Assembly: GCF_045037415.1 (NCBI RefSeq)
Contig: NZ_CP173438.1
Strand: one strand, 5' to 3'
DNA: 64,000 bases
Source: Escherichia coli
GTDB lineage: Bacteria > Pseudomonadota > Gammaproteobacteria > Enterobacterales > Enterobacteriaceae
Part shown: piece after piece, positions 59,994 through 61,034 of the stretch
Layout of the letters: each line of letters begins with the position of its first letter
How positions within the stretch are numbered: the first letter of the stretch is position 1
Translations under genes and position numbers: made by a program
The notes under the pieces: model-generated
The model's input: only the letters and a program-made list of their open reading frames with translations
The model's database searches: none
Told to the model about the DNA's origin: nothing

Positions 59994-61034
59994 ATGACTG
60001 GTCAGTCTTCATCTCAGGCGGCAACGCCCATTCAGTGGTGGAAACCCGCGCTTTTCTTTCTCGTTGTCATTGCCGGTCTCTGGTATGTGAAATGGCAACC
60101 TTACTACGGCAAAGCGTTTACTGCTGCCGAAACCCACAGTATCGGTAAATCTATCCTTGCGCAGGCGGATGCTAATCCGTGGCAGGCGGCGTTGGATTAC
60201 GCGATGATCTATTTCCTCGCGGTATGGAAAGCGGCGGTGCTGGGGGTGATCCTCGGTTCGTTGATTCAGGTACTGATCCCGCGTGACTGGTTGTTGCGTA
60301 CGCTTGGGCAATCGCGCTTTCGCGGCACGCTGCTGGGAACGCTGTTTTCGCTGCCGGGTATGATGTGTACCTGCTGTGCGGCTCCGGTCGCGGCGGGAAT
60401 GCGTCGCCAACAGGTGTCGATGGGCGGTGCGCTGGCATTCTGGATGGGGAATCCGTTGTTAAACCCGGCGACGCTGGTGTTTATGGGGTTCGTCCTCGGC
60501 TGGGGTTTTGCGGCGATTCGTCTGGTGGCGGGGCTGGTGATGGTGTTGCTGATTGCGACGCTGGTGCAAAAATGGGTGCGTGAAACACCGCAAACGCAGG
60601 CACCGGTCGAAATTGATATACCGGAAGCACAGGGAGGATTTTTTAGCCGCTGGGGCAGGGCGCTATGGACGCTTTTCTGGAGTACGATCCCGGTTTACAT
60701 CCTTGCAGTACTGGTGTTGGGTGCCGCTCGCGTCTGGTTATTCCCCCATGCCGATGGTGCTGTCGATAACAGCCTGATGTGGGTGGTGGCGATGGCGGTG
60801 GCAGGATGCTTGTTTGTCATTCCCACGGCAGCAGAAATTCCGATTGTACAAACGATGATGCTGGCAGGTATGGGAACTGCTCCGGCGCTGGCATTGTTGA
60901 TGACGCTCCCGGCGGTGAGTTTGCCGTCACTGATTATGCTGCGCAAAGCGTTCCCGGCGAAAGCCTTATGGCTGACGGGGGCGATGGTGGCAGTGTCTGG
61001 TGTGATTGTCGGCGGGCTGGCGCTGTTAGTTTGA
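59994..61034 (+). CDS. yraQ: Predicted permease YraQ (DUF318 family)
   Basis: 346 aa polytopic membrane ORF containing a CTCC motif (MMCTCCAAPVAAGM). Confidence 0.8.
   Translation: MTGQSSSQAATPIQWWKPALFFLVVIAGLWYVKWQPYYGKAFTAAETHSIGKSILAQADANPWQAALDYAMIYFLAVWKAAVLGVILGSLIQVLIPRDWLLRTLGQSRFRGTLLGTLFSLPGMMCTCCAAPVAAGMRRQQVSMGGALAFWMGNPLLNPATLVFMGFVLGWGFAAIRLVAGLVMVLLIATLVQKWVRETPQTQAPVEIDIPEAQGGFFSRWGRALWTLFWSTIPVYILAVLVLGAARVWLFPHADGAVDNSLMWVVAMAVAGCLFVIPTAAEIPIVQTMMLAGMGTAPALALLMTLPAVSLPSLIMLRKAFPAKALWLTGAMVAVSGVIVGGLALLV

Follow-up and report, generated by a model that had tools for sequence, protein, structure and literature searches.

A conserved triple-cysteine motif in the Escherichia coli permease YraQ and a putative link of its clade to selenium

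What does a cluster of cysteines do in a membrane protein that most strains of Escherichia coli encode? The question is raised by yraQ, a gene on the + strand of a 64,000-nucleotide (nt) stretch of E. coli DNA (contig NZ_CP173438.1 of assembly GCF_045037415.1; the whole stretch is termed the window below), which was found in 5412 of 5426 complete E. coli genomes, where it is annotated 'permease'. Its mentions in the literature are incidental: the gene is induced two-fold when sigma-E is overproduced, belongs to an ArgR-binding cluster and is listed in an antibiotic knockout table. An earlier note on this DNA had drawn attention to a CTCC motif in the protein. Here we report that this motif is a variant of the known hallmark of the ArsP/DUF318 family, and that the neighbourhood of the YraQ clade is tied to genes of selenium utilisation and not to metal-resistance regulators. 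From the sequences and a predicted structure we propose, with about as much belief as doubt, that the clade may constitute a thiol-based transporter of a selenium species. The gene and its motif are laid out as follows.

59994..61034, + strand: yraQ coding sequence, 346 residues plus stop; permease of the ArsP_1/DUF318 family, YraQ (UPF0718) clade, from the open reading frame (ORF) and the Pfam match.
60360..60401, + strand: codons of MMCTCCAAPVAAGM, residues 123-136 of YraQ.
60366..60368, + strand: codon of Cys125, first Cys of the family-wide C-x-C pair in the alignment.
60372..60377, + strand: codons of Cys127, which is family-wide, and Cys128, which is specific to the YraQ clade and is Ser or Gly in other subfamilies.

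The motif is real, with MMCTCCAAPVAAGM at residues 123-136; the start that the earlier note had given for it, 60360, was exact, and the end, 60400, fell one base short of the true 60401. YraQ has four Cys in all (C125, C127, C128 and C272), and the motif is far from chance: when the protein sequence was shuffled 200,000 times, a C-x-C-C pattern arose in 0.018% of the shuffles, and a group of any three Cys inside a span of five residues in 0.11%. A HMMER search of the full library with YraQ recovered 2849 relatives at E <= 0.001, and conservation was quantified in a set of 52 full-length sequences, consisting of YraQ and 51 cluster representatives (30-57% identical). The conservation of the Cys residues across homologues, a matter that the earlier note had raised, is borne out by this set, in which C125 and C128 are kept in all 52 sequences and C127 in 51. 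Around them P131 is likewise found in 52 of 52, T126 in 49, and M124 and P121 in 48 each, with A130 being near-invariant, and C272 occurs in YraQ alone. Across the clade 33 residues are at least 90% conserved, and every one of the 33 is present in the E. coli protein.

With which genes, then, does a protein of this kind travel? Metagenome contigs were scanned with a DNA pattern for M-M-C-T-C-C-[AST]-A-P, and all of the first 120 matches listed proved to encode a YraQ-like protein, with 31-99% identity. In 48 of these 120 loci the gene is accompanied by selD, mnmH, selA, selB or yedF, and in 40 of the 48 by selD or mnmH (also known as selU, encoding tRNA 2-selenouridine synthase). The nearest selenium gene lies at a median distance of 148 nt, and within 300 nt in 41 of the 48 linked loci. 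Where at least 1.5 kb of sequence flanks the gene on either side, the selenium link is seen in 16 of 40 loci, or 16 of 34 once enterobacterial sequences are set aside; a good many loci without a link are too short for neighbours to show. The commonest arrangements are a divergent selD upstream (16 loci) and mnmH upstream on the same strand (12), followed by selD and selA upstream on the same strand (4 each) and several others. A census of neighbours made without any selenium query placed SelD first (19 loci within three genes, 15 directly adjacent) and MnmH second (11 within three genes, 9 adjacent), and after these came the enterobacterial DolP and YraR, and then SelA and SelB. By chance, four single-copy genes in a genome of a few thousand would be expected in direct adjacency in well under 1% of lineages. 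Dereplication at 70% identity left 13 selenium-linked clusters, 9 that are informative and unlinked, and 13 that are uninformative, and in a rough neighbour-joining tree the linked members are spread through the clade, including its deep Firmicutes branch, with the Enterobacterales forming a nested branch beside Pseudomonas and Collimonas. Curated models identified the neighbours at individual loci: L133 has selA (576 bits), selB (448) and selD (531) followed by the yraQ-like gene, all on one strand; L119 has selD (494 bits) divergent from it; and L191 has yedF (218 bits) and selA (603) ahead of it.

A scan of genome contigs for yraQ relatives gave, as its best 80 matches, sequences from Enterobacterales, Pseudomonas and Collimonas. 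The Pseudomonas orthologue shares 63-67% identity with YraQ; after it, in convergent orientation, come mnmH (568 bits) and selD (578 bits), and both genes stand beside the yraQ-like gene in 27 of 28 informative Pseudomonas loci. In 19 Pseudomonas loci (L053-L087; for example L077:5120-5821) we also noted that the yraQ-like gene is immediately preceded, on its own strand, by a conserved ORF of about 233 residues that has a signal-peptide-like N-terminus, an RHG histidine-phosphatase-like motif and no NCBIfam match. Two Caballeronia plasmids have mnmH (545 bits) ahead of the yraQ-like gene, 40 nt away and in the same orientation. In Clostridium ljungdahlii one TetR gene stands between the yraQ-like gene and a betaine reductase selenoprotein cluster, whose GrdH was recognised at 660 bits and has an ORF that ends at the selenocysteine codon. 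The most extensive case is a megaplasmid of Ligilactobacillus salivarius (NZ_CP123972.1, 66000-92000; L101), where the yraQ-like permease lies at the end of a 22-kb selenium island that runs yedF, yedE, selD, prdC, selA, a class-V aminotransferase gene, selB, DUF3343, a second yedF, prdB, prdA, and genes for a rhodanese, a TusA-like and a YeeE-like protein. This selenium and D-proline-reductase island also encodes four more transporter candidates, namely YedE, the YeeE-like protein, a TauE/SafE protein and an APC permease. Since members of the clade adjoin or share operons with selD, mnmH/selU, selA, selB and yedF in many unrelated bacteria, a selenium species is suggested as the substrate.

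The same island brings up another reading, in which the clade would move reduced or sulfane sulfur (thiosulfate, sulfide or persulfide) and selenium genes would adjoin it because sulfur and selenium trafficking share components. The immediate neighbours in L. salivarius, a TsuA/YeeE-like protein (198 bits), a TusA-like protein and a rhodanese, are in keeping with it, as are the rhodanese domain of MnmH and the thiol-lined pathway, provided by its Cys, that YeeE uses for thiosulfate. However, the commonest neighbours of the clade, SelD, MnmH, SelA and SelB, are selenium-specific and are not cys, sox or dsr genes, and we consider a sulfur substrate quite unlikely.

Where in the protein does the motif lie? 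An AlphaFold2 model built from a 48-sequence alignment (mean predicted local distance difference test, pLDDT, 91; predicted template-modelling score, pTM, 0.90) contains the following elements.

60318..60407, + strand: predicted re-entrant hairpin 1, residues 109-138 (helix 109-119, tip 120-125, helix 126-138).
60462..60467, + strand: Asn157-Pro158, invariant break in the transmembrane helix after hairpin 1.
60519..60521, + strand: codon of Arg176, clade-invariant, Tyr in relatives from ars operons or linked to ArsR.
60774..60863, + strand: predicted re-entrant hairpin 2, residues 261-290, with its tip P277-T278-A-A-E281-I-P283 at 60822-60842.
60906..60926, + strand: L305-P306-A-V-S309-L-P311, conserved break in the helix after hairpin 2.

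The earlier note had placed the motif in a loop or half-helix, and the model agrees: the motif covers the coil 120-125 (LPGMMC) and the N-terminal turn of the half-helix 126-138, and is not buried in the middle of a helix. A mirror element is formed by helix 261-273, the coil 274-280 (FVIPTAA) and helix 281-290, and each hairpin is followed by a broken helix, respectively 143-155/158-168 with its break at N157-P158, and 295-307/310-315 with P306, S309 and P311. The clade-invariant residues are concentrated here, 19 of the 33 lying on the two hairpins and the two helix breaks, with Arg176 on a neighbouring helix. They include P121, M124, C125, T126, C127, C128, A130 and P131 at the tip of hairpin 1; P277, T278 and E281 at the tip of hairpin 2; and N157-P158, P306, S309 and P311 at the breaks. 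A second, overlapping match to Pfam ArsP_1 aligns residues 56-151 of YraQ with positions 157-252 of that model, and since it thus places the first half of the protein on the latter half of the family model, YraQ consists of two homologous, inverted repeats. Their helix patterns match in the AlphaFold2 model, and a 4+4 repeat has been described for the ArsP_1 family (PMC7176098). Across the 48 sequences the loops flanking hairpin 1 have on average 3.0 and 2.2 Lys/Arg residues, as against 0.1 and 0.1 for those flanking hairpin 2. This pattern suggests that the two ends of each hairpin face one and the same side of the membrane, and hairpin 1 should enter from the cytoplasm and hairpin 2 from the periplasm. 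We infer, with good support from the predicted structure, a fold of opposed re-entrant hairpins and broken helices. A search of PDB sequences with the 48-sequence profile found no relative of YraQ at E <= 1.

The position of the Cys bears on whether they are ligands at all, or have instead a structural or regulatory role as a disulfide or a redox or metal switch gating the transporter. Vicinal Cys pairs can form strained redox-active disulfides and many of the relatives are paired with a small thioredoxin-family protein, but the motif sits at a hairpin tip beside other invariant polar residues, which is the substrate-binding position in matching folds. Modification or mutation of the equivalent Cys is reported to abolish transport by ArsP. 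In Haft's analysis of the homologous SO_0444 family, moreover, selenocysteine is sometimes found in place of the first Cys, which suggests chemistry and not scaffolding. A purely structural or regulatory role of the YraQ cysteines hence strikes us as highly improbable.

How might a selenium transporter of this form work? The CTCC motif would be the thiol-lined substrate site of a secondary transporter, in which the C125/C127 pair, by analogy with ArsP, would bind a thiophilic substrate. The site may be made up of the three thiols together with Met123/124, Thr278, Glu281, Asn157, Ser309 and Arg176, with Glu281 as a putative proton-coupling or ligand residue. Cys128, Met123/124, Arg176 and Glu281 may retune it for a different substrate, which is probably anionic because Arg176 replaces the Tyr of the arsenic-type relatives. 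That substrate could be selenite or selenium at the selenide level, held as a Cys-S-Se adduct and moved across the inner membrane, most likely inward so as to supply SelD, the direction of import being speculative. Equally speculative is the chemistry, in which the C-x-C-C thiols would carry the selenium as a selenotrisulfide or perselenide, to be resolved by cytosolic thiols or by the Cys/Sec (cysteine/selenocysteine) loop of SelD; in that case selenium (+Se) adducts might be expected on the YraQ peptide LPGMMCTCCAAPVAAGMR. In its most specific form, the proposal would make the clade one of dedicated bacterial selenium importers, with covalent capture at the hairpin tip, elevator movement and hand-over to cytosolic thiols or SelD; we put this forward tentatively and are ourselves more inclined to doubt it than to believe it. 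If true, covalent selenium import would be a ligand-exchange mechanism of transport rather than one of reversible non-covalent binding.

Several points weigh against a selenium substrate. The evidence for it consists of gene neighbourhood and predicted structure, and the Foldseek search with the YraQ model gave no significant match in the PDB. The metagenome loci, as the first 120 matches listed, are a non-random sample, and curated models were applied to only a few of them. We saw no selenium link at the loci of Bordetella, Nocardioidaceae, Binataceae, Companilactobacillus and several metagenome contigs (ten or so lineages), nor at those of Collimonas, Serratia and Pantoea, so that roughly 40% to nearly half of the informative lineages are without one. 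No selenium genes adjoin yraQ in E. coli, and none of the 11 enterobacterial metagenome loci or of about 45 enterobacterial genome loci is selenium-linked. No classical E. coli screen for formate dehydrogenase or selenium mutants is known to have yielded yraQ. Every relative characterised is an efflux pump, with arsenicals or Cu/Zn as its substrates, so both direction and substrate could differ from those proposed, and a UPF0718/ArsP-domain protein of Pseudomonas pseudoalcaligenes, not assigned to a subfamily, is arsenite-induced.

Does the E. coli protein, then, still belong with the selenium-linked members? Although its locus has lost the adjacency, all clade-invariant residues are kept, because of which the same molecular function would be expected of it; on the alignment, this is the simplest expectation. 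The E. coli genes selD, selAB, mnmH/ybbB and yedEF are located elsewhere in the genome. In the window yraQ is neighboured by yhbO, yraR, dolP and diaA, and the 3.4 kb around the motif is 100% identical to several sequenced E. coli strains. A promoter scan of the yraR-yraQ region gave nothing exceeding the shuffled expectation. Between the convergent yraQ and dolP we noted two inverted units resembling repetitive extragenic palindromic (REP) sequences, of the bacterial interspersed mosaic element (BIME) type, at about 61050-61135, which give rise to the spurious ORFs listed there.

59286..59921, + strand: yraR, NAD(P)H-binding protein of 211 residues, upstream same-strand neighbour of yraQ with a 72-nt gap.

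The longest ORF of yraR begins at 59241, and homologues from other genera align from the ATG at 59286, which gives the 211-residue protein. The earlier note had linked yraQ to yraR as its neighbour; the adjacency holds, yraR being directly upstream on the same strand, but the link is confined to Enterobacteriaceae, Erwinia and Mangrovibacter. A conserved functional pairing was accordingly rejected, and yraR is regarded as a lineage-specific neighbour only. This leaves the narrower reading that YraQ of Enterobacteriaceae has a different job alongside YraR, such as redox cycling by the Cys cluster or export of a YraR product. In its favour, the two genes are paired on the same strand in 37 genome loci, with a gap of 15-106 nt in 36 of them and 217 nt in one, and in 8 of the 11 enterobacterial metagenome loci. 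This pairing nevertheless occurs within a single lineage, where vertical synteny accounts for it: in Pantoea and Serratia yraQ is present without yraR, and no such adjacency was seen in Pseudomonas, Collimonas or the more distant lineages examined. Nor is there a sign of functional change, since all 33 clade-invariant residues are kept in E. coli YraQ, and YraR itself matches no curated family in NCBIfam. We regard a YraR-coupled role as very unlikely.

Natural deletions affecting the motif and an adjacent helix were counted with 50- and 42-nt junction queries. An in-frame 60-bp deletion, 60342-60401, takes out exactly residues 117-136 of YraQ (LFSLPGMMCTCCAAPVAAGM) and has GGGAACG/GGGAATG on its flanks. 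It occurs in 3 of the 5426 complete E. coli genomes, all from bovine isolates (C3, C7 and OkiPb01675), and the protein collection lists its 326-residue product for 163 contigs; the motif can be lost, but this is rare. A second in-frame deletion, of 87 bp (60468-60554), removes residues 159-187, that is one whole membrane helix, and is bounded by perfect 12-bp direct repeats, GCGACGCTGGTG, at 60468-60479 and 60555-60566. At least 2 complete genomes carry it, and many draft assemblies encode the corresponding 317-residue proteins.

Selenium is needed for selenocysteine enzymes and for 2-selenouridine in tRNA, and reviews of 2022, 2024 and 2026 still state that prokaryotes have no known selenium transporter that is specific or of high affinity. 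Our search of the literature on YraQ, PF03773, DUF318, UPF0718 or COG0701 found no link of the clade to selenium. The predicted selenium role is new and can be tested directly in E. coli, where it would turn a core gene of unassigned function into a testable selenium-transporter candidate; Keio mutants, 75Se labelling and formate dehydrogenase assays exist for this organism. If it is true, a function would be gained for a protein clade that extends across Proteobacteria, Firmicutes and Actinobacteria, and the ArsP/DUF318 scaffold would have been retuned from arsenic or Cu/Zn to selenium by a few residues around a shared Cys pair.

How does the clade stand within its family? YraQ matches Pfam ArsP_1 (PF03773, formerly DUF318; TCDB 2.A.119) over residues 73-340 with an i-Evalue of 6.7e-29, and it was compared with nine plasmid-borne distant relatives of annotated context. 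These are found in an ars operon (Klebsiella huaxiensis), in ArsR-permease-thioredoxin units (C. botulinum, Acinetobacter and P. acidaminophilum), in an ArsR-permease pair (S. aureus), in a PadR-permease pair (Cupriavidus), with a TIGR03943 partner (two members) and in another setting (Thermomicrobium). C125 and C127 align with a CSC or CEC in all nine, and C125 is invariant in 14 sampled family members, including those in ars operons and linked to ArsR. Position 128 is Ser or Gly in the distant relatives except Thermomicrobium. The markers of the YraQ clade are Cys128, Met123-Met124, Arg176, Thr278 and Glu281, and the sites compare as follows.

Tip of hairpin 1: T-P-F-C-S-C-S-[ST]-I-P in the arsenic/ArsR type; P-x-M-M-C-T-C-C-[AT]-A-P in the YraQ clade.
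Residue 176: Tyr in the arsenic/ArsR type; Arg in the YraQ clade.
Tip of hairpin 2: Y-I-R-x-E or Y-A-D-I-F-G-T in the arsenic/ArsR type; F-V-I-P-T-A-[AG]-E in the YraQ clade.

The plasmid-borne member from Thermomicrobium roseum (L229:1626-2981, 451 residues) is intermediate, with Y-P-F-C-S-C-C-A-G-P as its motif, Arg at the position of residue 176 and M-I-P-T-W-T-E in hairpin 2; it lies near fdhE and a gene for a molybdoenzyme membrane anchor.

The conserved Cys pair and the occurrence of distant relatives in ArsR or ars operons uphold the association of the family with metal or metalloid handling that the earlier note had mentioned. YraQ could on this basis be a soft-metal or metalloid efflux pump (for arsenite or organoarsenicals, Cu/Zn, Cd or Hg), whose three thiols would chelate the metal or metalloid and whose selenium neighbourhood would be incidental or a sign that a metal accompanying selenium is detoxified. 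Yet no ArsR, MerR or CadC regulator and no ars, czc or cop gene adjoins any of the YraQ-clade loci examined, which for ArsR and ars genes number about 220, and five positions distinguish the YraQ site from that of the arsenic type. E. coli hosts with ars deletions that are used for ArsP assays retain yraQ and are nonetheless sensitive to MAs(III), which we count against this reading. Assignments to curated families also failed. YraQ scored 55.2 bits against the model of the SO_0444 Cu/Zn efflux transporter (NF033936; cut-off 300; other clade members 38-65) and 64.4 bits against that of SaoE (NF040736; cut-off 325), with no SAO genes nearby. Proteins of the clade as a whole scored 38-86 bits against these two models, and NCBIfam has no model for the clade itself. 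Nor is YraQ an ArsP in the strict sense, as it has G-M-M-C-T-C-C and not the T-P-F-C-S-C-S of the ars-operon permease of Klebsiella huaxiensis. The scores of 55-64 bits against cut-offs of 300-325 argue against metal efflux together with the absent regulators, and we consider it unlikely; were it nonetheless the function, the invariant triple-Cys site would still be a new specificity class in the family.

Among known systems, the elevator transporters of the ion-transporter superfamily (DASS/INDY, AbgT and ArsB) have no detectable sequence similarity to YraQ and gave nothing significant in Foldseek; the hairpin tips of DASS proteins carry S-N-T motifs and not thiols, and YraQ, at 346 residues, is much smaller. 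YedE/FdhT and YeeE/TsuA (PF04143) offer a functional analogy only, as membrane proteins with essential membrane-embedded Cys that handle chalcogen species, for they have no sequence relationship to YraQ and a different fold. A relation of YedE to selenium was predicted on neighbourhood evidence like that used here, and its role in selenium transport is still unproven; YeeE mediates thiosulfate uptake, and in L. salivarius the YeeE-like gene immediately precedes the yraQ-like one. The SO_0444 and SaoE proteins have the family in common with YraQ, which is without their MerR/ZntR or SAO-locus context; in Haft's analysis CSC is the most conserved motif common to these two families, and in Shewanella a gene with the DUF318 domain is of importance when zinc is a stress. 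The closest comparison is with ArsP of Campylobacter jejuni (TC 2.A.119), which effluxes methylarsenite and trivalent roxarsone. It has in common with YraQ the Pfam family, the two-repeat architecture and the C-x-C position of C125/C127. Transport by ArsP is reportedly lost when two conserved Cys are altered. Proteins of the ArsP type, about 20-26% identical, differ from YraQ in having Tyr at the position of Arg176 and in residing in ars/ArsR operons, whereas YraQ has P-x-M-M-C-T-C-C-A-A-P, Arg176 and P-T-x-x-E and is without ars context. Judged by these alignments, YraQ belongs to a distinct, uncurated subfamily that combines the shared Cys pair with a site of its own.

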